Assembly: GCA_964424265.1 (NCBI GenBank)
Contig: CAYRHX010000004.1
Location: forward strand, 4,081-68,080
Length of the DNA stretch: 64,000 nucleotides
Direction: 5' to 3'
Source: an uncultured Candidatus Saccharibacteria bacterium
Lineage (GTDB): Bacteria > Patescibacteriota > Minisyncoccia > Phycocordibacterales > UBA2100
Part shown: positions 16,405 through 35,445 of the stretch, piece after piece
How positions within the stretch are numbered: position 1 is the first letter of the stretch
Layout of the letters: the number at the start of each line of letters is the position of its first letter
Translations under genes and position numbers: made by a program
Notes under the pieces: generated by a model
The model's database searches: none
Seen by the model: the letters and a program-made list of their open reading frames with translations, nothing else
What the model was told of the DNA's origin: nothing

Positions 16405-17052
16405 ATGAATTTACTTCAAGCAGCACATAACAGAAAGAGCGGCACACTCTCGAAGTACGCCAATTATTTTGCCGAATACGACTCACACTTTAAAGAATAC
16501 CTTGATAAACCGATACGACTTATAGAAATTGGCGTACAGGGTGGTGGTTCACTTTCCATGTGGAAAGAATACTTTCCAAAAGCAAAGATTGTCGGTGTGG
16601 ATATAGATGATTGCTCTCGCTTCGCGACTGAAGATATCCAAATCTTCCGAGGAGATCAGGCTGATCCCAAGTTTCTCACTTCAATCCCTGGCACCTTCGA
16701 CATCATTATAGATGACGGCGGCCACACGATGAAGCAGCAGCAAGTGTCGTTCAAGCACCTCTTCCCGCGCCTCAACGAAGGTGGAATGTATGTGATAGAA
16801 GACCTGCACACTTCTTACTGGCCCGAGTTTGGCGGAGGGTATACTACAATGCATTTTTTGAAGGATGTCATTGACGACATGCACGATTGGGCTCGAAAGA
16901 GCCACCGCGCAAGTATATTCCGCGGGCGCCTACGACATTTTCATCGAGAAAAACCCTCGTTAAACAACGAAATCCGCAGTATCACATTTGCGGATAGCAT
17001 ATGCTTCATTAAAAAAGAGTCGGTGGGGAAGGGGCAGAAGATTAAACTGTAG
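16405..17052 (+). CDS. SAM-dependent sugar O-methyltransferase, CmcI/Methyltransf_24-like
   Basis: 215 aa. IEIGVQGGGSLSMWKEYFP...DIIIDDGGH is CmcI-family-like. Confidence 0.6.
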   Translation: MNLLQAAHNRKSGTLSKYANYFAEYDSHFKEYLDKPIRLIEIGVQGGGSLSMWKEYFPKAKIVGVDIDDCSRFATEDIQIFRGDQADPKFLTSIPGTFDIIIDDGGHTMKQQQVSFKHLFPRLNEGGMYVIEDLHTSYWPEFGGGYTTMHFLKDVIDDMHDWARKSHRASIFRGRLRHFHREKPSLNNEIRSITFADSICFIKKESVGKGQKIKL

Positions 17053-17074
17053 ACGACGCCCCAGTGATAGAAGC

Positions 17075-17680
17075 CTATTTAATCGCAAGTACGTAATATC
17101 CTGCGGTCGTGTTACGTTTGTCGGTTTGAAATGACAAGTCGAGAATACGCGCAAGTGGATTTAGGAACCAGCGAAGTTTATGCTGCATCGGCACAAAAAA
17201 AGATAAGGCTAAGAAGTAACCGCCTCGCTTGCGGACGTCGACTTCAGAAAATCCGGCAAAGAGGATCTCATGCAGAGTGTCGTCGAAAAACCTCCAATAA
17301 TCCGGATAGTGTCCCTTGCGCGCATGATATGGATACGTTGACGGGACGTAAAGAAACATAACGCCCCCTTTGCGTAAAACACGCCGCATCTCATCCATTG
17401 CGCGAATCGGGTCACGCACATGCTCTAGAACGGACGAACAGATTATTGCATCACATGACGCATCACCCATCGGTATGGCGTGAATATCTCCGATGATGCT
17501 TGCGCCGGTTGTTGCATCAAAATCAAACGTCCGATAGTCGCACCCATTGAAGAGGTTTGAGTACTCTCCAAGCCACTTCCCAAAACGTTCCCCGCCTCCA
17601 AAATCTACAACGAGGCCGTTTGTACCACCAACCTTCTCCATTGCTGAACGTATGAACACTCTATTGTTTTCCTCGGCCAT
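17075..17680 (-). CDS. Class I SAM-dependent methyltransferase (Methyltransf_11-like)
   Basis: 201 aa. VVDFGGGERFGKWL (motif I) and AIICSSVLEHVRDP (motif post-II). Confidence 0.65.
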   Translation of the reverse strand: MAEENNRVFIRSAMEKVGGTNGLVVDFGGGERFGKWLGEYSNLFNGCDYRTFDFDATTGASIIGDIHAIPMGDASCDAIICSSVLEHVRDPIRAMDEMRRVLRKGGVMFLYVPSTYPYHARKGHYPDYWRFFDDTLHEILFAGFSEVDVRKRGGYFLALSFFVPMQHKLRWFLNPLARILDLSFQTDKRNTTAGYYVLAIK

Positions 17681-17779
17681 AACATCCTGTTTTTAAATAA
17701 ATCTTTCTCCGGAGTATACAAGTCTTACTGCTCGCGGCTCATCTTATCACTTTCATTACAAGTGTGCAGAGGCAAGGAA

Positions 17780-18832
17780 CTACGTCATTAGTTCTTGAAG
17801 CACATCTACCAAGTCTCGCCCTACAAAGACTGGCGTTAACCTTGATTTGAACAGGTCGTATCCATTACGGGCAATGTCCTCCCTCATTTTTCCGTTGTTT
17901 CTTATTTCCAGAATCGCACGCGCCAAGTCTTCCGCACTACCTGCTTCGCAAAACAGAACGTCTTTTTTATCAGTAAGCAACTCCTGAGCTCCCGGTGTTC
18001 TGCTCGTAATGATGGGTGAGCGTGCTGCCAGCGCCTCATACACTTTATTCGGTATGGCTCGCTGAGCTTGACTGGCCTTCCCAAAAAGGCCCAAACTAAT
18101 ACTGGCCCGACTAATATAGTTCATCAACTGCTCGTACGGAATGTGACCAAGCAACCTGACATTTCGAACATCGAGATCCCGAACCAACTGTCTAATGCTA
18201 TCAGAAGACTGACCATCTCCTATGATCTGGAAGATAATCTTTTCGCGTTCAAGAATTTTGGCAGCACGTACAATATAATCGACTCCTTGTAGAGGGCTGA
18301 GTGCGCCATGGAAATGAACAATAAATTCAGATGTGCCGACCTGCTTAGGACAAAAAACATCGTCGTCCGATCCAATAAAAATGCGCCGAAATTTATTTGG
18401 ATTGAGATGAAAAGATCTGGAAAAGTACTCGCGATGCGCATTCGTATCAACAATAATCCGGTGCGCCAATATTAGGGAAAACCATTCAAGGAGCCAGTAA
18501 TACACTCCTCGGATACTCAGACGCTTGAGTAGTCCCCTAGAATACACTAGCGATTCGTGAAGAGGGACGAGCGCATCGACGACGATCGGTTTGCGAGTGA
18601 GAAACTTCGCCACTATAGCCGCTTGCTGACCAGGATATCCGACGATCATTATATCGTACTGTTTCCGCATTCTGTGATGTTTTTTTATAAGATCAACGTA
18701 CTTTGCGATACCGCGAAGACGGCTGACGCACTCAATAACCTCGATACCATTTTGCCTCAAACCTTTTATAAAGATTCTGTTCCGGCTATACCCGGGATTA
18801 TAGATCCCAAAATAACAAATTGTCATTTTCAT
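17780..18832 (-). CDS. Glycosyltransferase family 4 (GT-B, group 1)
   Basis: 350 aa. C-terminal GDGQ...RLLGHIPYEQLMNYISRASISLGLFGKASQAQRAIPNKVYEALAARSPIITS is typical GT4. Confidence 0.8.
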   Translation of the reverse strand: MKMTICYFGIYNPGYSRNRIFIKGLRQNGIEVIECVSRLRGIAKYVDLIKKHHRMRKQYDIMIVGYPGQQAAIVAKFLTRKPIVVDALVPLHESLVYSRGLLKRLSIRGVYYWLLEWFSLILAHRIIVDTNAHREYFSRSFHLNPNKFRRIFIGSDDDVFCPKQVGTSEFIVHFHGALSPLQGVDYIVRAAKILEREKIIFQIIGDGQSSDSIRQLVRDLDVRNVRLLGHIPYEQLMNYISRASISLGLFGKASQAQRAIPNKVYEALAARSPIITSRTPGAQELLTDKKDVLFCEAGSAEDLARAILEIRNNGKMREDIARNGYDLFKSRLTPVFVGRDLVDVLQELMT

Positions 18833-18886
18833 TGTTGATTGGAAATTCCTTGGACGCCATCAGCCCCACACTGAAGAAGTGTCAGA

Positions 18887-19294
18887 TTATTTTATAGGTA
18901 TTTCCCATTCAGATGGATCAGTCGGTCGTCTATGCTCATCGTCAGAGTTAAATTTTTGGTCTATGTAGAATAGTAAAATCGATGGCTCCAGCGATCGATA
19001 TCCGTGCCATATGCCAGGCTTGATGATGAGAGTCTTACGGCTCTGCTCACTCAACAATACACGCTCTTCTCGTCCGTTTTCTGAAACAAGGCGGAAAAGG
19101 ACGCTGCCTTTTGCTACGGTAAAATAATCAGTCTGCCGCGTATGCATATGCATGCCGGCAATAATGCCTGCCTGCATATATGAGAAGTTCATGTCTCCCG
19201 TGAGCCCTGGAACGATATCGTATAGTCCCCGACGCCTCTCGTCTTCATGGAAACGATGCGCATGAAATTCGGTCAACTTTTCTGAATCGGTCAT
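18887..19294 (-). CDS. RmlC-like cupin, probable NDP-4-keto-6-deoxyhexose 3,4-ketoisomerase (FdtA/WxcM-like)
   Basis: 135 aa. GMHMHTRQTDYFTVAKGSVLF His-x-His cupin motif and size typical of FdtA-type isomerases. Confidence 0.55.
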   Translation of the reverse strand: MTDSEKLTEFHAHRFHEDERRRGLYDIVPGLTGDMNFSYMQAGIIAGMHMHTRQTDYFTVAKGSVLFRLVSENGREERVLLSEQSRKTLIIKPGIWHGYRSLEPSILLFYIDQKFNSDDEHRRPTDPSEWEIPIK

Positions 19295-19301
19295 GGTATT
19301 T

Positions 19302-20189
19302 CTATACTATTATATCTAAATATCGCCTTAAAGCATCCCCCCACTCAGGAAGTAGGCTAATGCCTTGATCCCGCAACGCCGTGTTCGCAAGGACGCTCAT
19401 CCGAGGCCGACGTATCTTGCTTCCAGACTCCTTCGTCGGTATCGGCACAATATGCGGCGAAAGCTTAGCTTGGCGGAAAATCTCCTGAGCAAACTTGTAC
19501 CACGATGTCTGCCCCTGATTTGTAACATGGTAGACTCCGTATGGGATACGTCGTACCAAGATCTCTATGATCTTTTCGGCCAAATCAAGAGTGAAAGTAG
19601 GGGCAGTAATCTGATCGTCTACTACTCGTATATCCTTTCCCTCTCGCGCTAATCGCAGCATGACTTGTACAAAATTCTTCTTAGATCCCTCAGCGACCCC
19701 GAACAGGGCGCTCGTTCTCACGATGTAATACGCGGGCGTGGCGATTTGCACCAGAGTTTCTCCGGCATATTTTGATGCTCCATATACATTTATGGGGTGC
19801 GGCAAATCCTTCTCATCGAAAGATGTTCTCGTGCCGTCAAATACATAATCCGTACTCACGTGTACACAAAGCGCCCCAATATCCTTGCATGCCAGAGCAA
19901 CGTAATACGGGCCAAACGCATTCACCTCATAGGCAGAGACGGGGTTGCGCTCCGATTCCTCAACAAGGTTGTACGCCGCGCAATTAATAACAACATCCGG
20001 TTTCTGTGCAACAATGATGTCGCGCACCATGTGAGGATTAGTTATGTCAAAATCCTCGTGATGATAACGCAAGACCTCCATCATCGAGGGCAGTTTGAGG
20101 GCGAGATCAGATCCGAGCTGACCATATCCGCCGATAATGAGCACCTTTTTAATAGTAGCGCCCGTGTCGTTGCTTTTCATAATGATCAC
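19302..20189 (-). CDS. rmlD: dTDP-4-dehydrorhamnose reductase
   Basis: 295 aa. VLIIGGYGQLGSDL...DVVINCAAYNLVEESERNPVSAYEVNAFGPYYVALACKDIGALCVHVSTDYVFDG. Confidence 0.85.
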   Translation of the reverse strand: MIIMKSNDTGATIKKVLIIGGYGQLGSDLALKLPSMMEVLRYHHEDFDITNPHMVRDIIVAQKPDVVINCAAYNLVEESERNPVSAYEVNAFGPYYVALACKDIGALCVHVSTDYVFDGTRTSFDEKDLPHPINVYGASKYAGETLVQIATPAYYIVRTSALFGVAEGSKKNFVQVMLRLAREGKDIRVVDDQITAPTFTLDLAEKIIEILVRRIPYGVYHVTNQGQTSWYKFAQEIFRQAKLSPHIVPIPTKESGSKIRRPRMSVLANTALRDQGISLLPEWGDALRRYLDIIV

Positions 20190-21195
20190 GAAAAATCTCC
20201 TTTGTCTTTATAACCTTCCACCAAGTTGGATTTTTAATATACCAATCCACAATCGCCGACAATGAGTCGTCCAAAGGATGCTGCGGTTTCCAATCGAGTT
20301 CCTTGGTCAACTTTGCCGAATGTGGCGCATAACGCATATCAGCGCCGGGCCTGTCGTCGACGTAGGAAATCATGTTCGTGTGATTCTTACCGAGAATACG
20401 AGCAACTATTTTGATAATTTCGATATTTTTCTTCTCAGTACCGGCAACATTGTAAATACTGCCCGGTCGCGCCTTATGCATGATAAGATCGACGGCCCTA
20501 CAAAAATCTTCTACATGAATCCATGTGCGCACATGCTCACCTGTGCCGTGCACGGGAACGGGCACCCCCTCTAAGAGATTTGTAATCGCGAGAGGAATAA
20601 GTTTTTCTGGATATTGATAGGGTCCGAAATTATTTGAACCGCGAACGATAATCGCAGGCACTGCATGACTTCGAATGTATGACTGCACTAGAAGATCCGC
20701 ACCTGCCTTGGAGGCCGCATATGGATTGGATGGCCGCATGGGAGACATTTCATCCGAGGAACCTTCGCGAATATCGCCGTAAATTTCGTCAGTCGAGATC
20801 TGAATAAATGTCTCAATGTGATGCCTGCGTACCAGATTCAACAAAACGTGCACTCCGGTGATGTTGCTGCGGACAAATTCGGCCGAATCAACAAGAGATC
20901 GGTCAACGTGGCTTTCTGCGGCAAAGTTGACAACAACATTTACACGCTCCTTCAGGAGAAGCGCATTGAGTTTCCCTGCATCACATATATCGCCATGTAC
21001 AAATACATACCTCCTTTCCTCAACTTTTTTTCCCGCTTCCAACTTCTCAATGTCTGAAAGATTGTCCGGATTCCCCGCATATGTCAAAAGATCGTAATTG
21101 ATAATCTTATAATCAGGGTAAAGTGTGTACATACGACGAATAAAATTCGATCCCATGAAGCCGGAGCCGCCCGTAACAAGAATCTTTTTACTCAT
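20149..21195 (-). CDS. rmlB: dTDP-glucose 4,6-dehydratase
   Basis: 348 aa. MSKKILVTGGSGFMGSNFIRRM...YAGNPDNL...NFAAESHVDRS. Confidence 0.9.
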   Translation of the reverse strand: MSKKILVTGGSGFMGSNFIRRMYTLYPDYKIINYDLLTYAGNPDNLSDIEKLEAGKKVEERRYVFVHGDICDAGKLNALLLKERVNVVVNFAAESHVDRSLVDSAEFVRSNITGVHVLLNLVRRHHIETFIQISTDEIYGDIREGSSDEMSPMRPSNPYAASKAGADLLVQSYIRSHAVPAIIVRGSNNFGPYQYPEKLIPLAITNLLEGVPVPVHGTGEHVRTWIHVEDFCRAVDLIMHKARPGSIYNVAGTEKKNIEIIKIVARILGKNHTNMISYVDDRPGADMRYAPHSAKLTKELDWKPQHPLDDSLSAIVDWYIKNPTWWKVIKTKEIFRDHYEKQRHGRYY

Positions 21196-22421
21196 ATAAT
21201 CTGCATGTCGCCGATGGGAATGATGAATTTACCACCCTTACTTCTATACTCCGCTTCTTTCTGCAAGATTTTATCCTTATAATTCCATGCAAGCATGAGG
21301 AAATAATCAGGGGGATCCTTGCGCGCCTCCCTCACGTCAACCACAGGAATATGCATGCCGGGACTGTACGAGCCAATCTTTGTGGGAAGTTCTTCGGTAA
21401 GGTAATCGAGTGTTCCGGTACCGATTTTGAAATAATTGAGCAAGGTATTCCCTTTGGCCGGCGCTCCATATCCCGCGATCCTCTTCCCTTGCGCTTTGAG
21501 TTCAGATAACAGTCTGAGTAGTTTTTCTTTCGACGCTGCAATACGTTCGGCAAGCCTTGTATATGCATCAATCGAATCCATGCCGAGCGATATCTCTTTT
21601 TTGACGAGATCTGCAACGGTCGGCATGACTTTGCGCGTTCCGGAGCGCGCAGCAAATACCCGAATTGACGTCCCTTGAGTTTCCTGAAGTTCTACATCAA
21701 AAATCTCTAGCCCGAATTGGCTGCACAGCCGCTGCAACGGTCGAATCGCAAGAAAACACACGTGCTCGTGATAGATGGTGTCAAACGCGAGATTCTCGAA
21801 CATATCTACCAAATACGGAGCCTCGAAAACAAATACTCCGTCCTCGGCAAGCAGCGCGGTAACACCTCGCATAAGATCATGTTTATCATCAATGTGCGCA
21901 ACTACATTATTGCCAATAATAACTTTTGCCTTCCCGTGACTCGCGAGTATCCTTCGAGCGCACTTTTCTCCAAAGAAGTCGACGATGGTCGGCACATGAC
22001 GATCTTCCGCCGCTTCTGCAATATTCCTCGCGGGATCGACACCTAGTATGCGGATTCCTTCAGGAAGGAATGCGGATAGAAGTAGTCCGTCATTGCTCCC
22101 AATTTCGACGACAAGATCCTCGTTCCGCTTCAATCGAAATCGTTTTGTCACATTCTTTGCATATTCGACAAAATGCTGCGGGGTCGGCATGTGCGATGTG
22201 AAGTATACATATTGAGAAAACAGCTCCTCTTTATCAACGACGTGACACAACTGGACGTGATTGCACTCATCACAAAAATACACCTGAAGCGGGTAGAAAG
22301 GTTCCTGAGCAACGGGAATGGCACTCACAAACGCGTTCGCAAGTGGCTGTTCCCCAAGATCAAGAAACTTGGTGAGATGCGATGACCCGCAGATACGACA
22401 TTCTTTCTTAAGAGTATACAT
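21192..22421 (-). CDS. NDP-hexose C-methyltransferase (TylCIII/NovU-like; Zn-ribbon + class I MTase + C-MeTrfase C-terminal domain)
   Basis: 409 aa. N-terminal CRICGS...CDECNHVQL. MTase core VVEIGSNDG. C-terminal ...GGKFIIPIGD. Confidence 0.75.
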   Translation of the reverse strand: MYTLKKECRICGSSHLTKFLDLGEQPLANAFVSAIPVAQEPFYPLQVYFCDECNHVQLCHVVDKEELFSQYVYFTSHMPTPQHFVEYAKNVTKRFRLKRNEDLVVEIGSNDGLLLSAFLPEGIRILGVDPARNIAEAAEDRHVPTIVDFFGEKCARRILASHGKAKVIIGNNVVAHIDDKHDLMRGVTALLAEDGVFVFEAPYLVDMFENLAFDTIYHEHVCFLAIRPLQRLCSQFGLEIFDVELQETQGTSIRVFAARSGTRKVMPTVADLVKKEISLGMDSIDAYTRLAERIAASKEKLLRLLSELKAQGKRIAGYGAPAKGNTLLNYFKIGTGTLDYLTEELPTKIGSYSPGMHIPVVDVREARKDPPDYFLMLAWNYKDKILQKEAEYRSKGGKFIIPIGDMQII

Positions 22422-22526: not shown

Positions 22527-23768
22527 TCATTTGGGTGGCATGATCACAAATACCGTATCATATATATCCTGGAGCGGTTTCTGATAGCGCACAATGTTCA
22601 CGACCTTACCATCCTTGTATTCGAGATACGTGGTCTTAAAAAGGCGTAATAACGGCTCCACAAAATGATTAAATACGAAGAGTCCAAGAGAGCCGCGGAA
22701 TTCGTTCTTAGGAAGCCCTCCCCCTTCATTTTCATAGGTGAAGTAATACCAGCGATTCTCTGTCATGAGAATGGAGCGAACGTCGTACCAGGAGAGGATG
22801 CAATTCTCCGCAAACTGCTCATGCGCAAAACTAATGAGTGTATCGCCGCGCTTAATGGGAAGACGCGAAAGAGAAAAGGCCGCGAGGAGCGCCTTCACAA
22901 TCCCTATCGGGCGCGCAGTTTGCCATACGAACGGGACAGTGATCATAGTATCAAAAACACTAAACAATGGATCATTTTTGACGAGATCCCAACGAGTGTG
23001 CTCGATCATGAGCAAGCCCGTTTTGAGATCGCGTGTTCGACGGAGGTTGGCGATAATGATGGCATCGCGCATTACATACGCTGGATCAGAAGCGATAAAC
23101 CAGAGTGTTTCCGGTTTCCCCACCGCCTCCATAATCTTCTCCATTGTTTTCGCTTCGTCTTCAATATACTTTCGACGTGAATCGGGAAGCGGAGCATCGA
23201 ACGAGCGGATAAAAAATGAATCCGGAAGACCCTTGAAATAGCTCCGATATCCTTCTATCGTCTCATCGGGAACAGATCCTTTCATAAGGTCGAGAAAGAT
23301 CGCTGCACGATACCCCATCGCATATGCGGAAGCTGCTGCCCAAGAACATGAGGCGAACACCCAGTCTATTTCTCCCTCACCGTGGAAGAGCAAGAAATCG
23401 GCGACGGTGCGCTTTCCCACTTCAAATCCAGAAAGGTTGAGTTTGGTGTATTCGTCGGTTTCATTCGGATGCTGCTGGTAAAGAAGACGGTGCGTGGGGA
23501 GATTTTCTTTAATATATGCGAGCATCGCATTAGTCTGCCTGATGAAAGACTCATGGTCCGAGCCAAGCGGCAGATTATAAAAATCTGTTCCAAAAAAGAC
23601 CGCGGTCTTGGCCCCCGGGTTATGTTTGAGCAAATATGGGAAAATGATCTTTTGTATACTTCCATGCTTCATCTGGAACAGCCTACCATAGCCGCGCCAT
23701 ACGTTAAAAATAGCGGGAATATAATCTCCGTGATAGATTATGCGAACCGGGAACATGAAAATGATCAA
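22527..23768 (-). CDS. Hypothetical protein, possible polysaccharide-modifying/glycosyltransferase-like
   Basis: 413-aa ORF, no confidently recognisable motifs. Longest ORF overlaps the divergent 23740 gene head-to-head by 29 nt, so the true start is likely internal (e.g. MKHGSIQ at about 23672). Confidence 0.4.
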   Translation of the reverse strand: MIIFMFPVRIIYHGDYIPAIFNVWRGYGRLFQMKHGSIQKIIFPYLLKHNPGAKTAVFFGTDFYNLPLGSDHESFIRQTNAMLAYIKENLPTHRLLYQQHPNETDEYTKLNLSGFEVGKRTVADFLLFHGEGEIDWVFASCSWAAASAYAMGYRAAIFLDLMKGSVPDETIEGYRSYFKGLPDSFFIRSFDAPLPDSRRKYIEDEAKTMEKIMEAVGKPETLWFIASDPAYVMRDAIIIANLRRTRDLKTGLLMIEHTRWDLVKNDPLFSVFDTMITVPFVWQTARPIGIVKALLAAFSLSRLPIKRGDTLISFAHEQFAENCILSWYDVRSILMTENRWYYFTYENEGGGLPKNEFRGSLGLFVFNHFVEPLLRLFKTTYLEYKDGKVVNIVRYQKPLQDIYDTVFVIMPPK

Positions 23769-24597: not shown

Positions 24598-24613
24598 TTT
24601 GCAAACTGTAGAC

Positions 24614-26542: not shown

Positions 26543-26578
26543 ACATCAACGCAGACCCGCAGACCCGTGGACTTTTAT

Positions 26579-28536: not shown

Positions 28537-28539
28537 AGT

Positions 28540-29349
28540 TTATATTTTGAGCTTGAGGGACGTTTTCTTCTTTTGGTTTTCGAGAAATTCCTGCTGTCGA
28601 AAGAAGTTCATCGCTGCAATTTCGGGTTTCCCGCCCAACATCTGCAAGATATCACGGAGAGGCACCGTGTTGCTAGCCATGTCCATTTCCTCAAAAACTC
28701 GCTTAAAAAACTCGTAATCCTCCGGATAGTCAAGCGTCAATCGGATTTTTTCATTCCAATAGATGGGGTCGGCAACTTTAAAATCTGAAACGTTAAAAAG
28801 TCCCGTATCAGTGAAATACACCCACATCATCTCGGTCTCCTTTGTATCTTTAATCTCGCACACTTTCTCGAGAGCCGTTGTCTTGATCCCGAACTCAGGT
28901 CCGCCGCAGACAAGTCCCTTTGGGATATTGAGAAAATCCGGCCGCTCTGTTTTTATCTGCTGTATCTCCATCTCGATAAGCTCCGAACCAAAGAACGGAT
29001 CGTCGCCGTCAAGTGTAATAATGTAATCTGCTTCAAATCTTCTGGCAGCACCAAGCCATCGATCGAGCTTATCCTCGAGACTGCCGCGGAAACACAAAAT
29101 TCCTTCTTTCGACGCGATTTCCTCTAGAACATCGTCCTGCTCCCTATCTGAGGTACAGAGCACAATGCCATCGAGTCCTCGTACCGACTTCGCGCGGTCA
29201 ATCACATGCTCAACCACCCTTCTTCCCCGAATTGGCAAAAGCGCCTTCTGCGGAAGACGCGACGAATCGGATCGCACAGTGATTAGTCCAAGAATCTTCA
29301 TATACCCTGTAGTATCCCACTGGCGCGGTGCCCGGTCTAGCGGTAGCAT
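28540..29349 (-). CDS. Acylneuraminate cytidylyltransferase-like CMP-nonulosonic acid synthetase (CTP_transf_3)
   Basis: MKILGLITVRSDSSRLPQKALLPIRGRRVVEHVIDRA. Probable start at about 29301. Confidence 0.75.
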   Translation of the reverse strand: MLPLDRAPRQWDTTGYMKILGLITVRSDSSRLPQKALLPIRGRRVVEHVIDRAKSVRGLDGIVLCTSDREQDDVLEEIASKEGILCFRGSLEDKLDRWLGAARRFEADYIITLDGDDPFFGSELIEMEIQQIKTERPDFLNIPKGLVCGGPEFGIKTTALEKVCEIKDTKETEMMWVYFTDTGLFNVSDFKVADPIYWNEKIRLTLDYPEDYEFFKRVFEEMDMASNTVPLRDILQMLGGKPEIAAMNFFRQQEFLENQKKKTSLKLKI

Positions 29350-29357: not shown

Positions 29358-30614
29358 ATGCTTCAGTCTCTTAAAAACCGCACACTCGCCCTTCTGCGGT
29401 GGAGCGAGACCTACACCAAGACCGATATGTTGTATGCAGTACACGGAGGATTCTGGCTTGTCGTTGCCAAAATGGTCGCACTCGGATCATCGCTGCTCCT
29501 TGCTGTCGCGATGGCAAATTTTATTTTGCCGCAGACGTTCGGGGTCTATAAATTCGTGTTGTCAGCAACGGGTATACTCGGCGCCATTACTCTAACGGGC
29601 GCGGGGGCTGCAATCGTGCAGTCGGTTGCACGCGGATACGAAGGCGCATTTCGCTCTGGAACAATCGAGTACATCAAGTGGAGTTTGGGTTCTGTCGCAC
29701 TCGCAATCTCGATGGCCATCTACTATTTAGTCAACGAGAACTACACTCTTGCGGCATCTTTTTTTATCGTCGCGATCTGTAACCCGATACTCGTGAGCTC
29801 CTCCTTCTTCACACAATTCATCTCTGCAAAGAAGGATTTCCGAACTGGATCAATATTTGATAGCATTGCAGACATCGTTCCCGTATCTATTTTGATCGCC
29901 GCAACGCTCCTCACTCAAAATCCCGTATTCCTTATTGCGACCTACTTCTTATCGGGGACAGGCATCAATCTCGTGTTGCGACACGCCACAATCAGAAAAT
30001 ATCGTCCCAATGATCGAGTCGATCCCGAGACCATTCCATATGCCCGACACTTAAGCCTCATAGGTATGATCGGAAAGATCGCTGAAAACGTCGATAAAAT
30101 ACTTGTCTTTCATTATCTCGGGGCGGCGCAATTGGCGATTTACGCATTCGCTCAAACGCCGATTGCTCAATTGAAGCTCTTCAACGACATCCCAGCGAGA
30201 CTCGCCCTCCCGAAGTTGAGTGCAAGAAATCTCTCCGAACTAAAAGATTCACTCCCTAGAAAGATTCTCTTGCTGGTCGGAGTTATGACAGTCGTCGTGA
30301 TTATATATATTGCTCTTGCTCCGTTTCTTTTTAGACTCCTGTTTCCTCAGTATCTAGAATCTATCGTCCTTACGCAAGTACTTGCACTTTCTCTCATCTT
30401 TGCCCCAGGTTCAATGTTTGGAGAAGCTTTGACTGCGCACATGCGAAAGAAAGAACTATACATCTCACAAACGATTCTTCCAATTGCGAAAATTGGTCTT
30501 TTTATGTTGCTATTGCCAGCATGGGGAATCTGGGGCGCTGTATGCACAACGATCGTCTCACAATGTCTCATGTTTATAATCTATTCCTACCTCTTTTTGC
30601 GGACACAGCGTTAA
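29358..30614 (+). CDS. Wzx-type oligosaccharide flippase (MOP superfamily polysaccharide biosynthesis protein)
   Basis: 418 aa, about 12-14 TM helices with the Wzx arrangement. Confidence 0.75.
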   Translation: MLQSLKNRTLALLRWSETYTKTDMLYAVHGGFWLVVAKMVALGSSLLLAVAMANFILPQTFGVYKFVLSATGILGAITLTGAGAAIVQSVARGYEGAFRSGTIEYIKWSLGSVALAISMAIYYLVNENYTLAASFFIVAICNPILVSSSFFTQFISAKKDFRTGSIFDSIADIVPVSILIAATLLTQNPVFLIATYFLSGTGINLVLRHATIRKYRPNDRVDPETIPYARHLSLIGMIGKIAENVDKILVFHYLGAAQLAIYAFAQTPIAQLKLFNDIPARLALPKLSARNLSELKDSLPRKILLLVGVMTVVVIIYIALAPFLFRLLFPQYLESIVLTQVLALSLIFAPGSMFGEALTAHMRKKELYISQTILPIAKIGLFMLLLPAWGIWGAVCTTIVSQCLMFIIYSYLFLRTQR

Positions 30615-30645
30615 AAACGACTCTTCCGGTACTCGAAACAAACGC

Positions 30646-32529
30646 ATGAGAAACCTTCGAGATATCTATCTAGCGCTTTGCGCATCGTATGCAACACAGA
30701 TGCGTATCGCCAGGTTCATTATTTCCGGTGGCACTGCAACAGCTGTCAATCTTGGAGCACTATTCATACTCACACACTTATTCCACATCTGGTATCTCTT
30801 TTCTTCAGTACTTGCATTTGGCGCGTCATTCCTCGTCAGCTTCACATTGCACAAATTCTGGACATTCGGTGACACCTCTCAGGATCGCATACACGTCCAA
30901 GCATCTCTATTCTTCCTCGTCATCGTTACGGCGCTCGGAATCAACACTGGTCTGCTCTATACGTTTGTCGAGTACGCACATCTGCACTACCTCGTCGCAC
31001 AATTTATAAGCGGTATTTTCATCGCATTCATCAACTACTTCAGCTACAAGCACCTTGTGTTTCGTGTGGAAGATCCATCAACTGCGCCGACAGAAAACTC
31101 CAGACCTGTGCTTACACGCCTCTTTTTCCTTGCATGTGCCACGGTGACATTTCTCATTCTCGCGCTCTACCGCCTGCCAGAAAATCCACCGACATGGTTG
31201 GATGAAGGGGCCATAACGCAGGTGTCTATCAATCTCGCACACAGCGGAACCTATGGTCTTCAGACAGCGCCTGGACATTTCGTCTCGACCGATTTTCTCA
31301 CCACGAGCCTCCCGGTCATCTATCCTGTCGCTCTCTCGTTTTTCCTTTTTGGCACATCGATTTTGGATGCGCGGATGGTCATGGTTATTTTCATGGGACT
31401 CCTGTGCGTCTTTTCGTATTTTCTGATCCGGATGCTCGCCACCGAAAGGAAACGCGAGTTACCCATCCTCTCTCTGTACTTACTAGTCACATTTGCGCCG
31501 CTCTACGGACACGGAAAAAATGTGCTCGGCGAAGTACCCGGACTCATGTTCTTCGTCGCCTCTCTTGTCGCCTTTCATTTCGCGGAAAGACGTTCGGGTC
31601 TGTGGCTTTGGATACTTTCAGGTGCGTTTTTGGGTCTCTCGGCGACCACCAAACCAATCTACCTGTTTATTATTGCGCCATCCGCACTATTGACACTCCT
31701 GATATATCGCAAACGATTCTCTCTCAAAAACATCGGCGTCTACGCCGTGAGCGCTTCGAGCATTCTCATGTTGTGGTTTTTCGTACACGTCACGAATGTC
31801 GTCGCCCTTAAAGAGATTCTTCTTTCAGCCAACACGAACAACGTCGCGCTCTCCACTCGTCTTTTTGAAAATGGCATTCGATTCGTTTCCGAACCTCAAC
31901 CACTTTACTTCCTCGCTCTCCTTGCTCTTTGGTGGATCGCCTTGGTATACCGCAGATGGAAGAGGATTGAGATCTCAAGCGTTGAGCTCTTTGCTGGTAT
32001 TTTTGCTGTGACAAATCTCATTCTGTATCTTGCAAGTCGAGGTTTTTATCGTTACTTTTTCCCCGCGGAGATACTCGCGCTGATTTTCTTACCACTCGCT
32101 CTATACACCATGCCGCTCAAAGAACAGTACCGAGCCATATTCCTTAAAGCCTGTACCGCGTTCATCGTATTTCTTGTCCTCCTCCAAGGCTATCAAACAT
32201 TTTTCCGTTCATGGATATCTGAATACAGATCGAGTGCTCGCTCTGCCCTTCTTTCTGAACACCTGCGCGGTATCCCCGGTGAAAGAAGCGTCTTTTTCTA
32301 CAATGTTCCCGAAGCCGTCATATTTTTGCCATCTCAAAACTACTACCAGTACTTGTGGTTCGGCGACAACACCATCCGAGGAGAAGAAAATCTGCCGATA
32401 CTCTTTCGAGGTGAGCCCGATTTCGTCTTAGTAGATGGAAAATTCCCTGATACTGACAAAATATCGCCTCTATATATTGAGATTTCGCGATTCGACAAAT
32501 ATGTTCTCTACGAAAAAAAGCGCAAGTAA
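30646..32529 (+). CDS. GtrA-like domain fused to GT-C (GT39/GT83, ArnT/PMT-like) membrane glycosyltransferase
   Basis: 627 aa. N-terminal 4-TM GtrA (FIISGGTATAVNLGALFILTHL...LHKFWTF) then about 11 TM helices typical of polyprenyl-phosphate-sugar-dependent GT-C enzymes. Confidence 0.75.
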   Translation: MRNLRDIYLALCASYATQMRIARFIISGGTATAVNLGALFILTHLFHIWYLFSSVLAFGASFLVSFTLHKFWTFGDTSQDRIHVQASLFFLVIVTALGINTGLLYTFVEYAHLHYLVAQFISGIFIAFINYFSYKHLVFRVEDPSTAPTENSRPVLTRLFFLACATVTFLILALYRLPENPPTWLDEGAITQVSINLAHSGTYGLQTAPGHFVSTDFLTTSLPVIYPVALSFFLFGTSILDARMVMVIFMGLLCVFSYFLIRMLATERKRELPILSLYLLVTFAPLYGHGKNVLGEVPGLMFFVASLVAFHFAERRSGLWLWILSGAFLGLSATTKPIYLFIIAPSALLTLLIYRKRFSLKNIGVYAVSASSILMLWFFVHVTNVVALKEILLSANTNNVALSTRLFENGIRFVSEPQPLYFLALLALWWIALVYRRWKRIEISSVELFAGIFAVTNLILYLASRGFYRYFFPAEILALIFLPLALYTMPLKEQYRAIFLKACTAFIVFLVLLQGYQTFFRSWISEYRSSARSALLSEHLRGIPGERSVFFYNVPEAVIFLPSQNYYQYLWFGDNTIRGEENLPILFRGEPDFVLVDGKFPDTDKISPLYIEISRFDKYVLYEKKRK

Positions 32530-32535
32530 CCTATT

Positions 32536-32979
32536 ATGAATGCACCAAAACGACTAACGGACGAGGAATACAACTTCATATTTGACCGCGTCGCGCGCCT
32601 CAGTATTGACCTAGTTATAACTTCAAACGAAGGAATTCTCCTATCGCTTCGAGACATCGAACCGTTTAAGGGTATGTGGCACCTGCCTGGTGGAATGATC
32701 TATAAAAATGAGTCGGTGAGCGAAGCGGCTCAAAGAATTGCCCGGGCAGAAACTGGTTTGGAGGTAAAGATTGGCTCATGTATTGGCTATATTGAGTACA
32801 TCCATGCGTCTCAAGACGATCACGACCGCCACACCGTAAGTATTGTGCTCAGCGCCCTTCCCAGAGAAAATGAGCCAAAAACGGACTACCAGGCGCAAAG
32901 GATCCAATTCCACCCAAAAGCACCCAATAACATTATCGAGCAGCAAAAAAGATTCCTCGTGGAACACAACCTGATCTAA
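32536..32979 (+). CDS. NUDIX hydrolase (GDP-mannose mannosyl hydrolase-like)
   Basis: 147 aa. Nudix box GGMIYKNESVSEAAQRIARAETGLEV. Confidence 0.75.
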   Translation: MNAPKRLTDEEYNFIFDRVARLSIDLVITSNEGILLSLRDIEPFKGMWHLPGGMIYKNESVSEAAQRIARAETGLEVKIGSCIGYIEYIHASQDDHDRHTVSIVLSALPRENEPKTDYQAQRIQFHPKAPNNIIEQQKRFLVEHNLI

Positions 32980-33018
32980 CAGGGAGGATTAGCAAGCGAA
33001 GGTCTTTTCCACGGGGAC

Positions 33019-34293
33019 TCACCGCCCGATGATCCGCACATCTGGCAAAGGAACGATGAATTTCGTCCCCTCCGCCATAAGATCCGATTCTCTTTTTATA
33101 AAACCTCCTATAAAACTGTACGGTAGGGCAAGCAAATAATCTGGCTTCGCGGCGCGCATTTCAACCTCATCTTTAATGAGTATATCTGAACCGATGATAA
33201 ATTTGCCGTGTTTGAAGGGATTTGAATCAGCCGCAGCCGCGATTGTCTCACGCCCGATTCCACAATATTGGAGAATGGTGTTCCCCTTGGTAGAAGCTCC
33301 ATACACCCAAATAGTTTTTCCCTCCGCACTTATCTTTGCACATAAATCTTGGAGGTCTGTGCGCGTCTTTTCGATCCTCCGCATAAATTTCTGGTACGTT
33401 TCCAGCTCAAACACCCCATCATCGAGCTCGTTCTGGAGAAGCCCACGCAAGCGCTCCGTCAGAGGAAATCTTTTACACCCCTTCTTCTTTACAAACACCC
33501 GGAAGCTCCCCCCGTACACATCATTCTCCGTCACGTCGAACACCTCGAGACCCACCTGCTCCATGAGCCATTTCATATGGACAGTCGCGTAATATCCAGC
33601 GTGTTCATGGACGATGTTGTCATACATATTCGTCCGGATCATTGCGGGAAGGTAGGCCATTTGGATCACCCATACCCCCTCATCGTCGAGGCATGTCGCG
33701 GCATCCCGCGCGAGCTTGAGAGGATCGTCGAGATGATAGAACATCGCGATGCTAAAGATGAGTTTCGCTTTCTTCTTCGAGTTCTTTCGAAACGCTGCCG
33801 CATTAAAAAAATCATGCACTGCCGTATAATTCGGAGAATCGAGAAGCGACCTTACATTCTTCGCCGGATCAATATTGATGAGCTCGAAAGGATCGTCGCG
33901 AAAAAAGGAGAGGAGTGTGCCATCGTTACCTCCGATGTCGAGAATGACATCACCCGACTCGAGATTCTTGAGCGCACGCCTGCTCTGTGCCACATCCTCG
34001 AGAATACGCGCCATGGATGAGTTTGTGCTGCTCGTATATGGATACGCATCATACATGGCCGAAAGATCGAGCCTGTGGCCAAGCTGGACGAGGCCGCACG
34101 TTTTGTCCGTTTTACGGCACATCACGAGATCGAGTGGATATTTAATAGCATCTTTCCGATATTCGAGATTCTCGGGAAATACCGACGAAAGATATTGCTC
34201 GCCAATATCAATGCAAGGCACGAGGTCGGAGTTTCCGCATACTCGGCATCGCTCAATCCTCGGGACCACCTGTGCGATTGATCTTTTTTGCAT
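33019..34293 (-). CDS. NDP-hexose C-methyltransferase paralog (TylCIII-like)
   Basis: 424 aa. CRVCGNS...C Zn-ribbon, VILDIGGNDGTL MTase core, C-terminal KFIVPLPD. Same architecture as the 21192-22421 gene. Confidence 0.75.
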   Translation of the reverse strand: MQKRSIAQVVPRIERCRVCGNSDLVPCIDIGEQYLSSVFPENLEYRKDAIKYPLDLVMCRKTDKTCGLVQLGHRLDLSAMYDAYPYTSSTNSSMARILEDVAQSRRALKNLESGDVILDIGGNDGTLLSFFRDDPFELINIDPAKNVRSLLDSPNYTAVHDFFNAAAFRKNSKKKAKLIFSIAMFYHLDDPLKLARDAATCLDDEGVWVIQMAYLPAMIRTNMYDNIVHEHAGYYATVHMKWLMEQVGLEVFDVTENDVYGGSFRVFVKKKGCKRFPLTERLRGLLQNELDDGVFELETYQKFMRRIEKTRTDLQDLCAKISAEGKTIWVYGASTKGNTILQYCGIGRETIAAAADSNPFKHGKFIIGSDILIKDEVEMRAAKPDYLLALPYSFIGGFIKRESDLMAEGTKFIVPLPDVRIIGR

Positions 34294-34308
34294 GGAGTTC
34301 CGACAATC

Positions 34309-35004
34309 TTACGGTGTAGGCTCCCAATTATCAAGAAAGGTGAGTACGTCGCGGGCATCCGGAAAGTCCGGTTTAGGATTCACTATTTCCTGGACGTCCA
34401 CCGGCCCATCAAATTCCACTTTCACGCCTAGGTGATCTGCGATTTCCCGCAATGAGATGGTGTTGCGTGCTCCCACTTCGATAATGCCGCTTTTACCCAA
34501 ATTTCCCGAAATCCACTCCCCGACGAATTCTAGCGGAGTAAAACAGTAGCGGCTCTCCGCGCCTACATACACTTTCTTCCCTCGTTTGATATCCAAGAGC
34601 GCACCTTTCGTGATATTGGGGCTGTACATGGCACTCAGGCGCACGATTAGATTGTCTCCGAAGTCACAGATTTTCTCGGCGGCTGCTTTGTGTCGGCCGT
34701 AGACCGTATTAAGCTGACACCGTGCGGAAATCGTGCTTATCTGGATGAACTTCTTGTATTTCCATCTGTAGACGAGGTCGGCCGTCTTCTGCACCGTTTC
34801 TATAAAATCCTCTGCCGGATGATTCTTGGCAAAAAAACGTGCTCCTGGCATCGCCGCATTTATGACCACGCTGTACTCATGCGTCTGCATCTCGCCATAA
34901 TTCTCGCGCGTGACCCACACGACAGAATTCGGGGTTTGCGCGAGTGCGGTACACAAGGCACTCCCTACATATCCTTTTGCGCCGACAACGGCAACAGATG
35001 CCAT
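34309..35004 (-). CDS. NAD(P)-dependent sugar reductase/epimerase (atypical short SDR)
   Basis: 231 aa. MASVAVVGAKGYVGSAL Rossmann motif. Confidence 0.6.
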   Translation of the reverse strand: MASVAVVGAKGYVGSALCTALAQTPNSVVWVTRENYGEMQTHEYSVVINAAMPGARFFAKNHPAEDFIETVQKTADLVYRWKYKKFIQISTISARCQLNTVYGRHKAAAEKICDFGDNLIVRLSAMYSPNITKGALLDIKRGKKVYVGAESRYCFTPLEFVGEWISGNLGKSGIIEVGARNTISLREIADHLGVKVEFDGPVDVQEIVNPKPDFPDARDVLTFLDNWEPTP

Positions 35005-35007
35005 GAG

Positions 35008-35445
35008 CTATTTCTTCACCTTGGAGCCCTGGAGGTCTTCCACTCGAACGATCGGAGGATTACAATCGTCCCACCTTTTAGAGAGCATCGCAACGGCCGT
35101 GACAGCGGTTATGGCATAGAACGCGTGAGAAGTGCCCATTGGCGTACGCACGCATGATCCGCGACTCATATGGATCTGCTCCTCCGGAGCGTCAGGAGAA
35201 TCTTTTGTCACCATCACGCCCGATCCGTCGACGACCAGAAAATATTCATTAAATTCCGGATGGTAGTGGTGGCCTCTCGTTTTCCCCGGCTGGAAATAGA
35301 GCATATTGAACTCGACGAGCGGATCCTTTGGCAGCCATGTGAAAATCCCCCCTCGACCATCCCGAACGGTCTCCAGATTGCACGACGGGCTTAATATCTC
35401 GATTTTCATAAGTTCCAGTGTACGTAGTGCTTCGGTAAGCGTCAA
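35008..35445 (-). CDS. FdtA/WxcM-like cupin, NDP-4-keto-6-deoxyhexose 3,4-ketoisomerase
   Basis: 145 aa. TRGHHYHPEFNEYFLVVDGS His-cluster cupin motif. Confidence 0.65.
   Translation of the reverse strand: MTLTEALRTLELMKIEILSPSCNLETVRDGRGGIFTWLPKDPLVEFNMLYFQPGKTRGHHYHPEFNEYFLVVDGSGVMVTKDSPDAPEEQIHMSRGSCVRTPMGTSHAFYAITAVTAVAMLSKRWDDCNPPIVRVEDLQGSKVKK

Follow-up and report, generated by a model that had tools for sequence, protein, structure and literature searches.

The interval 16405-35445 of a 64,000-nucleotide stretch of DNA from an uncultured Candidatus Saccharibacteria bacterium (contig CAYRHX010000004.1; the whole stretch is called the window, and all positions refer to it) is the core of a cell-surface glycan locus of about 40 kb, extending over about 11-51 kb of the window. 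The locus is probably a mosaic of four sugar-precursor modules of known enzyme types, a judgement that applies jointly to the whole four-module explanation and its proposed chemistry: gmd-fcl with a MycE/TylE-like O-methyltransferase (module 1); C-methyltransferase-RmlB-RmlD-short cupin (module 2, or cassette 1); cytidylyltransferase-aminotransferase-short-chain dehydrogenase/reductase (SDR)-NeuB::TIM-barrel fusion with a 413-aa soluble protein (module 3); and GT2 glycosyltransferase-CapF-like cupin-short SDR-C-methyltransferase, with NUDIX, GtrA and GT-C genes (module 4, or cassette 2). Gene identities, family memberships and cassette conservation are established, and modules 2, 3 and 4 each recur separately in other genomes of the Candidate Phyla Radiation (CPR). 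An earlier note on this DNA had read the interval as one gene set for one heavily C- and O-methylated deoxyhexose in the manner of antibiotic sugar pathways; the present reading keeps the branched and methylated 6-deoxysugars, and their place in a surface-glycan locus, but rejects the single antibiotic-type pathway, since the two C-methyltransferases belong to different cassettes that are found separately in other genomes. Gene calls rest on a listing of open reading frames (ORFs) and on Pfam and NCBIfam scans with gathering scores (GA) and equivalog cut-offs as thresholds (Table 1); the labels L005-L072, P0053 and P0130 denote homologous loci and proteins from CPR genomes and metagenomes.

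Both C-methyltransferases are, to judge from their sequences, TylC3/TcaB9-type nucleoside diphosphate (NDP)-hexose C-methyltransferases, in agreement with the earlier description of two TylCIII/NovU-type enzymes with N-terminal Zn ribbons. Each combines a Methyltransf_13 four-cysteine Zn ribbon (83.9 bits in C-methyltransferase 1 and 50.2 bits in C-methyltransferase 2; GA 31.3), a class I S-adenosylmethionine (SAM) domain and a C-terminal Methyltransf_14 domain (181.2 and 144.9 bits; GA 23.5), all above GA, and the alignments resolve the cysteine pairs as CxxC...CxxC in the former and CxxC...Cx6C in the latter. Neither enzyme groups with non-sugar methyltransferases: the closest solved relative of both is the D-mycarose 3-C-methyltransferase TylC3 (4rv9), which matches C-methyltransferase 1 over its full length (residues 7-403, 310 bits, 1.9e-91) and C-methyltransferase 2 over residues 13-421 (3.2e-58), and the next are two more sugar 3-C-methyltransferases (5t64, TcaB9). 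Moreover, the active-site Glu-His pair is kept, as YHEH in C-methyltransferase 1 and VHEH in C-methyltransferase 2, aligned to YHEH of TylC3; we take the pair to be E224/H225 in the numbering of TcaB9, which is a C3-specific methyltransferase. The genome matches of C-methyltransferase 1 lie in CPR metagenome-assembled genomes (MAGs) in five of five cases (Niyogi-, Yanofsky-, Sacchari-, Giovannoni- and Azambacteria; 52-59% identity). Together with the Parcubacteria members of the cupin-2 cluster and the Patescibacteria names among homologues of the NeuB fusion, these matches place the source of the window, which lies on metagenome contigs of up to 80 kb, in the CPR/Patescibacteria, where it is probably Parcubacteria/Paceibacteria-like.

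The two enzymes thus have the same three domains (Zn ribbon, SAM, C-terminal) as TylC3, TcaB9 and EryBIII, along with full-length alignment and the Glu-His pair, whereas their context is a CPR surface-glycan locus instead of a macrolide or tetronate antibiotic cluster. Unlike TylC3 pathways, the locus has neither a 2,3-dehydratase nor a 3-ketoreductase gene, which implies 2-hydroxylated 4-keto-6-deoxyhexoses as substrates, and C-methyltransferase 2, with Val for the first Tyr of YHEH, probably uses a GDP-sugar. TylC3-like enzymes in envelope glycan loci are already known: for the virenose (6-deoxy-3-C-methyl-gulose) of Coxiella burnetii phase I lipopolysaccharide (LPS), a pathway of gmd, the TylCIII-like CBU_0691 and the fcl-like CBU_0688 is modelled, GDP- and dTDP-routes both being considered (PMC3539893). 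The Coxiella system resembles the present one in joining a TylC3-like C-methyltransferase with gmd and fcl in an envelope glycan locus; here, in contrast, two separate cassettes have dedicated cupins (the cupin-1 family in one, a CapF-like cupin with a short SDR in the other), one cassette is coupled to a polyprenyl-phosphate/GtrA/GT-C route, and the context is not of the LPS type.

Cassette 1 joins C-methyltransferase 1 to RmlB and RmlD, both above their equivalog cut-offs and both recognised earlier, and to cupin 1. The same gene order occurs in Saccharibacteria, Giovannonibacteria and Azambacteria loci (tblastn) and in Peregrinibacteria, Elusimicrobia and Curtissbacteria contigs (gene tables). 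A metagenome scan with the cupin-1 profile returned 80 loci, 44 of them at identities of at least 50%, of which 21 have at least 4.5 kb of upstream sequence; a C-methyltransferase 1 homologue lies upstream on the same strand in all 21 and an RmlD homologue directly upstream of the cupin in 14, which makes the link between cupin and C-methyltransferase more constant than the gene order as a whole. Among the loci below 50% identity with enough flank, a cupin-1 relative (32-38% identity) directly follows the C-methyltransferase in 10 of 25. The cupin-1 family (about 164 clusters, about 130 aa each, most members with a PF05523 match) is, in all data examined, a partner of the C-methyltransferase and not a general RmlC substitute; a role as generic RmlC replacement in CPR rhamnose synthesis was considered and rejected, a C-methyltransferase being present in all seven individually examined contexts as well as in the 21 metagenome loci. 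Seven loci (L029, L039, L050, L057, L063, L064 and L072) have no clear RmlB between C-methyltransferase and RmlD; five of them hold an SDR about 20-28% identical to RmlB, and L029 and L072 gave no match. Cassette 1 may use another dehydratase or nucleotide in some lineages.

The substrates, step order, regiochemistry, stereochemistry and acceptors proposed for each module are predictions. For cassette 1, RmlB would produce dTDP-4-keto-6-deoxyglucose, C-methyltransferase 1 would methylate a carbon beside the keto group, most likely C3 by analogy with TylC3, the stereochemistry would be adjusted by the dedicated cupin of 135 aa, most likely through C5 epimerisation, and RmlD would reduce C4, giving a dTDP-C-methyl-6-deoxy-L-hexose of the 3-C-methyl-rhamnose type. 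The neighbouring GT4 glycosyltransferase would then transfer the sugar. O-methylation of the product may be due to the small class I methyltransferase that closes the cassette, an enzyme also called in the earlier note and with counterparts near cassette 1 in L006, L008 and L023. Conservation of dTDP-L-rhamnose synthesis across several classes of CPR has been reported (PMC9166423). Cassette 1 resembles RmlABCD, and the noviose- or nogalose-type C-methyl derivatives of that pathway, in its RmlB and RmlD equivalogs and in the cupin occupying the RmlC slot, and differs from it in that this cupin has an HxH...D...H motif instead of the RmlC lysine and His-Asp dyad, in that a C-methyltransferase always accompanies cupin 1 in the informative loci examined, and in that rmlA is absent from the locus.

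The role of cupin 1 is where the reading of cassette 1 meets its strongest competition. The earlier note had proposed two FdtA-type 3,4-ketoisomerases; two cupins do exist, yet the FdtA type is not supported, cupin 1 being tied between RmlC and QdtA and cupin 2 being CapF-C-type. Specifically, cupin 1 exceeds GA for both dTDP_sugar_isom (32.9 bits, GA 27; profile positions 42-140 of 168) and FdtA (27.8 bits, GA 23), the former being higher, and measures 135 aa against about 180-200 aa for RmlC. A 32-sequence profile of the family gives a near tie between RmlC (5.5e-6) and QdtA (7.9e-6). With the reference residues presumably being His62, Tyr132, Lys72 and Asp172 of Mycobacterium tuberculosis RmlC, the positions of the catalytic His and Tyr are kept (H49, Y110), and the Asp of the His-Asp dyad is not conserved across the family. 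C5 epimerisation is nonetheless the most likely role, since after C3 methylation only C5 would still be epimerisable and the reductase of the cassette is an RmlD equivalog. Weighing against it, the position of RmlC Lys72 is an invariant Asp56, and cupin 1 aligns to QdtA without gaps, its HxH(K) motif falling onto HSH of QdtA, whereas its RmlC alignments require three insertions; H49-M-H51 is invariant in the 32 sequences, although HxH is also a generic cupin metal motif and not specific to ketoisomerases. Nor does fold separate cupin 1 from the QdtA/FdtA ketoisomerases any better than the sequence profile does: the fold search scores 15.9 for an uncharacterised 'dTDP sugar isomerase' (3ejk), 14.6 for a proven 3,4-ketoisomerase (7n67), 13.9 for the WbcA epimerase, 13.2 for StrM/RmlC and 12.2 for CapF. 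A QdtA/FdtA-like cupin 1 (135 aa against 144 aa for QdtA) would give dTDP-3-keto-6-deoxyhexose, from which the C-methyltransferase and the RmlD homologue would make a branched D-sugar, the product being a 3-amino sugar if an aminotransferase encoded nearby took part; distant relatives of cupin 1 (32-38%) lie between C-methyltransferase and DegT aminotransferase in marine contigs. This route is unlikely, although its chance is appreciable: C3 methylation needs no ketoisomerase, and to our knowledge all characterised members of the TylC3-type family use 4-keto substrates; the core cassette contains an RmlD equivalog, a 4-ketoreductase, and no aminotransferase in most loci examined; RmlC is still the best profile match; and the FdtA/QdtA partners (the 3-aminotransferase FdtB/QdtB and an N-acyltransferase) do not belong to core cassette 1 in the window, L007, L023, L024 or L025, a DegT gene standing beside it in some loci only and no acyltransferase being seen. 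A 5-C-methyl sugar of the noviose type is improbable. It would make the cupin a 3-epimerase (NovW), the C-methyltransferase a C5 enzyme (NovU) and the RmlD homologue NovS; RmlB, an RmlC-like cupin, a C-methyltransferase and an RmlD-like reductase correspond to the NovT/W/U/S set of the noviose pathway, and NovW is among the weak PDB matches of cupin 1, but the nearest solved relatives of C-methyltransferase 1, in a comparison set without NovU, are all C3-methyltransferases (TylC3, 5t64, TcaB9).

Cassette 2 is kept in L010-L017, eight near-identical contigs of which two are NCBI MAG assemblies, with the order GT2-cupin-SDR-C-methyltransferase-NUDIX accompanied by two PMT_2 GT-C genes and the GtrA fusion (identities 58-81%; 59% for the short SDR and 68% for C-methyltransferase 2 against the L010 orthologues). 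Cupin 2 has a complete cupin metal motif (G-x5-HxH-x4-E-x6-G), matches Cap5F at 1e-4 and has no Pfam FdtA match. Among the members of its 90%-identity cluster are Parcubacteria proteins that bear the names 'CapF C-terminal domain-containing' and 'AviX10', and the cupin of the eight contigs likewise appears with Parcubacteria names in the cluster listing; a 389-aa protein of the same cluster (P0130) is a GT2::cupin fusion. In Staphylococcus aureus CapF (Cap5F), which acts in UDP-L-FucNAc synthesis, epimerisation of the 4-keto sugar is the work of a Zn-cupin domain and its reduction that of an SDR domain (PMC5393024). Cupin 2 falls in the Pfam family of the CapF C-terminal domain, aligns over HxH...E...H and adjoins an SDR with GxxGxxG and YxxxK motifs, and the predicted logic, epimerisation of a 4-keto-6-deoxy sugar followed by reduction, is shared. 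The differences from CapF are that cupin and SDR are here two successive genes (the SDR gene begins 3 bp downstream), that they are coupled to a C-methyltransferase and a GT2, and that the substrate is likely a GDP-sugar, not a UDP-HexNAc. The short SDR was also considered as a recognisable CapF N-terminal domain, and phmmer was negative for it, so that 'split CapF' holds for the cupin only.

A GDP-4-keto-6-deoxyhexose is the precursor to which the surroundings of cassette 2 point, because a Gmd homologue (42% identical to the window gmd) follows the NUDIX gene in L010-L017 and the window NUDIX protein, which is convergent with C-methyltransferase 2 and has an equivalent position in those contigs, is weakly GDP-mannose mannosyl hydrolase-like. 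Two findings count against this reconstruction, namely the distance of about 17 kb between cassette 2 and gmd in the window and the lack of detectable similarity between the short SDR and the CapF N-terminal domain, phmmer giving weak NDUFA9 matches only. C-methyltransferase 2 would methylate the Gmd-supplied GDP-4-keto-6-deoxyhexose, the CapF-like metal cupin would epimerise it and the short SDR would reduce it. The best NCBIfam matches of the GT2 are ArnC, AglJ and a dolichyl-phosphate hexose transferase, all below cut-off, and the GtrA::PMT_2 fusion protein shares 48% identity with its PMT_2 counterpart in L010; the presence of both in the locus suggests that the cassette 2 sugar is loaded on polyprenyl phosphate by the ArnC/GtrB-like GT2, flipped by the GtrA domain and attached outside the membrane by the PMT_2 GT-C proteins. 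The clustering of an ArnC/AglJ/dolichyl-phosphate-hexose-type GT2 with a GtrA domain and PMT_2 GT-C proteins is that of GtrA/GtrB/GtrC, ArnC/ArnT and Ppm1/Pmt, from which the locus differs in the fusion of GtrA to a GT-C and in its predicted donor, a C-methyl-6-deoxyhexose. Related Parcubacteria loci repeatedly have, next to cassette 2 and NeuB modules, a radical SAM protein some 560 aa long (13455-15137 in L010-L017; 6204-7919 in L021), which may be a further sugar-modifying enzyme of the glycan system; no radical SAM match was obtained among the window ORFs scanned.

The region 22527-29349 is most likely a CMP-ulosonic-acid module, an assignment based on NeuB-AP_endonuc_2/CTP_transf_3 fusion in another genome, on the 413-aa homologue adjoining that fusion and on the HPNE motif of the 413-aa family. 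Its two central genes, the NeuB-SAF-AP_endonuc_2 fusion and the CTP_transf_3 gene, had been overlooked, as had gmd and fcl just upstream of the interval (14317-16348). The operon runs on the minus strand in the order CTP_transf_3, DegT, PtmA-like SDR and NeuB fusion; the first three genes show stop/start overlap or lie at most 4 bp apart (the 3' end of DegT overlaps the SDR start by 4 bp), and a gap of 36 bp precedes NeuB. The aminotransferase and the small reductase called earlier both exist (the latter as SDRs at 26579-27265 and 34309-35004), but placing the aminotransferase and the 228-aa SDR in a deoxyhexose pathway is doubtful because of their translational coupling to the cytidylyltransferase and the NeuB-family synthase; module 3 probably owns both, and probably the TylF-like methyltransferase too. 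More than 100 homologous clusters of the NeuB-AP_endonuc_2 fusion exist, whose named members are nearly all Patescibacteria, and one such protein (P0053, 902 aa; L021 8001-10709) is additionally fused to CTP_transf_3 and directly followed by a homologue of the 413-aa protein. The family of the latter comprises 32 clusters, three of them fused to a CmcI/Methyltransf_24 domain; it has an invariant HPNE (HP) motif, and the five best folds in a search with the predicted structure are sialyl- and Kdo-transferases. For several homologues the longest contig is as long as that of NeuB-AP homologues, which suggests that the two are encoded on shared contigs. The 413-aa protein is a candidate CMP-ulosonate glycosyltransferase.

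An amino-ulosonic, sialic-acid-like sugar would be the joint product of the NeuB::TIM-barrel fusion, the PtmA-like SDR and the DegT aminotransferase. The CTP_transf_3 enzyme would activate this sugar as a CMP-sugar and the 413-aa protein would transfer it, and the divergently transcribed Methyltransf_24 enzyme may methylate it. The latter had been called TylF/MycF-type, which is borderline: coverage of TylF is partial (25 bits against a GA of 23), Methyltransf_24 scores higher, and the best PDB match has E=0.15. The methyltransferase domain fused to some 413-aa homologues was compared with the Methyltransf_24 genes of the window and is not their counterpart, BLASTP finding no significant similarity to 23740-24597 and a match of a 37-residue motif only to 16405-17052, which supports a general methyltransferase-clan link only. 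Gene sets for legionaminic acid are described in Campylobacter ptm flagellin glycosylation (LegC, LegI/NeuB, LegF/PtmB, PtmA) and in Bacillus subtilis sps (PMC7439481). Module 3 resembles them in holding a NeuB-family synthase, a DegT protein with LegC and PseC as best matches, a PtmA-like SDR and a CMP-sugar synthetase-type enzyme in one operon. It differs in having no 4,6-dehydratase, hydrolysing 2-epimerase or N-acetyltransferase partner, in the fusion of NeuB to a xylose-isomerase-like TIM barrel, in NCBIfam scores that are all under the equivalog cut-offs (for the NeuB fusion, NeuB_NnaB 350.9 against 399.65 and PseI 228.5 against 340; for DegT, LegC 221 against 420 and PseC 220 against 423) and in a candidate transferase from a family without Pfam model. 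Some of this tells against the ulosonic-acid reading: the window ORFs scanned include no LegB/PseB, NeuC/LegG/PseG or acetyltransferase homologue, so module 3 is not a canonical nonulosonic-acid pathway, and the aminotransferase could serve a 6-deoxyhexose branch instead, because its top PDB match is GDP-perosamine synthase (200 bits, followed by inosose aminotransferases and ArnB) and DegT homologues also stand beside cassette 1 in L008, L009 and L035.

Module 1 would yield GDP-L-fucose through gmd and fcl, and the MycE/TylE-like enzyme encoded next to fcl would probably O-methylate a 6-deoxyhexose once this is transferred. This methyltransferase had been called CmcI-type; its PDB matches place its catalytic core closer to MycE (3ssm, 1e-31) and demethylmacrocin O-methyltransferase (8ia9, 2.4e-27) than to CmcI (9e-4). 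Residues 23-145 align to MycE 204-336, and the N-terminal auxiliary (tetramerisation) domain of the enzymes of about 400 aa is missing. As reported before, rmlA is not seen: the GGxGTRL motif of RmlA and ManC is absent from every frame of the window and, in a motif search, from L005-L009, and the sequence flanking the window, covered for 10 kb in one direction and for the roughly 5 kb that remain of the contig in the other, contains no NTP_transferase gene. This counts against the four-module explanation in one respect, since without RmlA or ManC in the window or the flanks examined the activating nucleotides are an assumption. An unusual fusion of a HIGH-type RfaE-domain-II-like nucleotidyltransferase with a phosphomannose isomerase (PMI)-type cupin is transcribed divergently from gmd (NCBIfam rfaE_dom_II 67.7 bits and GMP_PMI C-terminus 54.7 bits, both under cut-off). 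It could be a non-canonical sugar-1-phosphate nucleotidyltransferase/PMI substituting for the absent ManC or RmlA, and fusions of this type might be what was read as 'ADP-heptose synthesis' in Paceibacteria (PMC9166423).

For the locus as a whole, the explanation to be set against the four modules is one dTDP-6-deoxyhexose pathway in which all the enzymes, with two FdtA-type ketoisomerases, contribute to one (amino)deoxysugar with extensive C- and O-methylation, in the macrolide or aminocoumarin style. Every enzyme class it names is present, cupin 1 passes the Pfam FdtA threshold in a family with mostly PF05523-matching members, and DegT homologues adjoin cassette 1 in some CPR loci. It is nevertheless very improbable, as the two C-methyltransferases are about 30% identical to each other's orthologues and stand in cassettes that occur alone, genomes with only one of them existing at gene level; moreover, cupin 2 is of the CapF-C type, the aminotransferase and SDR genes form a coupled set with those for NeuB and the cytidylyltransferase, and the partners of cassette 2 are Gmd, NUDIX and polyprenyl-phosphate GT2 genes, not dTDP enzymes. 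That the genes tailor a small-molecule natural product such as a glycosylated antibiotic is extremely improbable: homology to TylC3, to MycE/TylE and weakly to TylF, and the name 'AviX10' on a relative of cupin 2, are in its favour, whereas the window ORFs scanned include no polyketide synthase, non-ribosomal peptide synthetase or aglycone genes, the neighbours are flippase, Wzy-like, GtrA, GT-C, GT2 and GT4 genes, and the cassettes in other CPR genomes share the envelope context.

Table 1. Genes of the glycan locus with window positions, strands and the matches on which the calls are based.
Feature	Position	Strand	Evidence
Wzy_C (O-antigen ligase/polymerase-like) membrane protein, C-terminal TPR repeats	11023-13410	-	Pfam Wzy_C 62.6 bits and TPR families; 13 hydrophobic segments
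RfaE-domain-II-like nucleotidyltransferase fused to PMI-type cupin	13410-14345	-	Pfam CTP_transf_like and MannoseP_isomer
GDP-mannose 4,6-dehydratase (gmd)	14317-15366	+	TIGR01472 590.8 bits (cut-off 415)
GDP-L-fucose synthase-like (fcl)	15413-16348	+	NF047922 493.5 bits (below cut-off 500)
MycE/TylE-like sugar O-methyltransferase core, 215 aa, last gene of gmd-fcl run	16405-17052	+	Pfam Methyltransf_24; PDB matches
Small class I SAM methyltransferase, end of cassette 1	17075-17680	-	Pfam Methyltransf_11/23
GT4 glycosyltransferase of cassette 1	17780-18832	-	Pfam Glycos_transf_1 85 bits
Cupin 1, 135-aa NDP-sugar cupin, putative epimerase or 3,4-ketoisomerase	18887-19294	-	CPR-centred family accompanying C-methyltransferase
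RmlD-type dTDP-4-keto-6-deoxyhexose reductase	19302-20189	-	TIGR01214 300 bits (cut-off 224.05)
RmlB, dTDP-glucose 4,6-dehydratase	20149-21195	-	TIGR01181 395.7 bits (cut-off 365.1)
C-methyltransferase 1, TylC3-type NDP-hexose C-methyltransferase, first gene of cassette 1	21192-22421	-	Pfam Methyltransf_13/23/14
Soluble protein, 409-413 aa family, candidate CMP-ulosonic-acid glycosyltransferase	22527-23768	-	No Pfam or NCBIfam match
Methyltransf_24/weak TylF-like methyltransferase, divergent from 413-aa gene	23740-24597	+	Methyltransf_24 33.5 bits; TylF 25.0 bits (GA 23)
NeuB-SAF-AP_endonuc_2 fusion, 642 aa: ulosonic-acid synthase and xylose-isomerase-like TIM barrel	24614-26542	-	Pfam NeuB 276.6, SAF 37.2, AP_endonuc_2 82.6
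PtmA-like classical SDR, 228 aa	26579-27265	-	Pfam adh_short_C2; NCBIfam PRK09186 124.7, FlagModPtmA 79.5, below cut-offs
DegT-family sugar aminotransferase	27262-28536	-	Pfam DegT 288.5
CTP_transf_3 cytidylyltransferase (CMP-ulosonate synthetase-like)	28540-29349	-	Pfam CTP_transf_3 78.9; weak KdsB-type NCBIfam matches
MOP-family flippase	29358-30614	+	Pfam Polysacc_synt; 9 hydrophobic segments
GtrA domain fused to PMT_2 GT-C	30646-32529	+	Pfam GtrA_DPMS_TM 85.5 and PMT_2; 13 hydrophobic segments
NUDIX hydrolase	32536-32979	+	Pfam NUDIX; NCBIfam best PRK15434 43.8 bits, below cut-off
C-methyltransferase 2, TylC3-type NDP-hexose C-methyltransferase of cassette 2	33019-34293	-	Pfam Methyltransf_13/23/14
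Short atypical SDR, 231 aa, putative 4-ketoreductase	34309-35004	-	Pfam Epimerase 32.8; GxxGxxG, YxxxK
Cupin 2, CapF C-terminal-domain-type metal cupin, putative 4-keto-sugar epimerase	35008-35445	-	PF14667 35.7 (GA 28.7)
GT2, polyprenyl-phosphate sugar synthase-like (ArnC/GtrB/Dpm1-type)	35442-36176	-	Pfam Glycos_transf_2
Methyltransferase-GT2 fusion	36183-37868	-	Pfam Methyltransf_23 (106-265) and Glycos_transf_2 (321-455); AglJ-like (NCBIfam)
PMT_2 GT-C glycosyltransferase	37600-39306	-	Pfam PMT_2; 10 hydrophobic segments; 47% identical to L010 orthologue
GT4; GT4 fused to N-terminally truncated UDP-glucose dehydrogenase-like domain; GT-C-like protein with 10 transmembrane segments	39310-43784	-	Pfam, NCBIfam, tblastn against L010/L018, hydropathy
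FkbM methyltransferase, distal locus	44762-45550	-	Pfam; NCBIfam fkbM_fam 77.3 bits
GT4, distal locus	45591-46703	-	Pfam
SDR, distal locus	46740-47786	-	Pfam
GT4, distal locus	47626-48954	+	Pfam
SDR, distal locus	50087-51004	-	Pfam

The enzyme families of the locus are all known; what is distinctive and concentrated in CPR genomes is the cupin-1 family, the split CapF-like pair with C-methyltransferase and polyprenyl-phosphate routing, and the NeuB fusion with the candidate new transferase family. It is possible, though doubtful, that these represent glycan chemistry undescribed for CPR, with the short cupin of the lineage-centred four-gene cassette, tied in the data examined to a C-methyltransferase, as a new functional subclass of NDP-sugar cupins for C-branched 6-deoxy sugars (a), a GDP-derived C-methyl sugar delivered through polyprenyl phosphate, GtrA and GT-C (b), and a non-canonical CMP-ulosonic-acid pathway with a NeuB::TIM-barrel fusion and a new CMP-ulosonate glycosyltransferase family (c). 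If so, part of the 'dTDP-rhamnose synthesis' annotated in CPR genomes might be synthesis of branched sugars. The locus is in any case a warning against taking rmlB and rmlD in these genomes for plain rhamnose genes. CPR genomes measure about 1 Mb, and the bacteria are attached to or dependent on other microbes, so that the surface is their site of interaction and of phage recognition; about 40 kb are here given to methyl-branched deoxysugars and a sialic-acid-like sugar, and the cassettes are common to many CPR classes. The CPR reviews searched do not mention surface glycans, a search of the available library for CPR C-methyltransferases, CPR NeuB and 'AviX10' returned nothing relevant, and one paper summarises the CPR genes only as 'dTDP-L-rhamnose' synthesis (PMC9166423). 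The locus offers a four-gene cassette suited to expression in Escherichia coli and a candidate new glycosyltransferase family as targets and, for deoxysugar enzymology, C-methyltransferases that should take 2-hydroxylated, possibly GDP-linked, substrates.

The rest of the locus bears out the surface-glycan context that the earlier note had described, with the flippase, the Wzy_C/TPR protein (a homologue of which is present in L018) and the PMT_2 GT-C proteins. The methyltransferase-GT2 fusion is likewise real, and its annotated start is probably over-extended, since it overlaps the adjoining gene. The FkbM-type methyltransferase is confirmed as such, but not its frameshift, the match being uninterrupted (residues 88-206 against model positions 2-127 of 143). 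A truncated UDP-glucose/GDP-mannose dehydrogenase-like domain is fused to a GT4 at 40349-42292 (minus strand), its profile match beginning at position 71; the same domain forms a separate 276-aa protein in a contig of Spechtbacteria (L018 4612-5442) and is joined to a methyltransferase in one of Peregrinibacteria (L023 10994-12646). Dehydrogenase activity seems unlikely for it, because the Rossmann N-terminus is missing.

Rfam and tRNA scans of the whole window gave no matches, and the 1.1 kb between 48955 and 50086 contain no ORF of at least 120 aa, no Rfam match and no tRNA. Directly after the glycan locus, a lamin-tail-domain protein overlaps an ATPase resembling TrwB/type IV secretion system coupling proteins (50964-53595, minus strand). 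Lastly, a diversity-generating retroelement lies at 56632-59083, with a reverse transcriptase at 56632-57666 (minus strand; Pfam RVT_1) adjoined by a weak bAvd match. The two copies of a 110-nt repeat (58084-58193 and 58461-58570) differ at 17 positions; at every one of them the first copy reads T, which is A on the minus strand, and the second may have any base. This pattern, the signature of template and variable repeats, is the basis of the call. The variable repeat falls at the 3' end of an ORF at 58442-59083 (minus strand), and short segments of the reverse transcriptase gene recur at 62934-63084, where they may mark a second reverse transcriptase.

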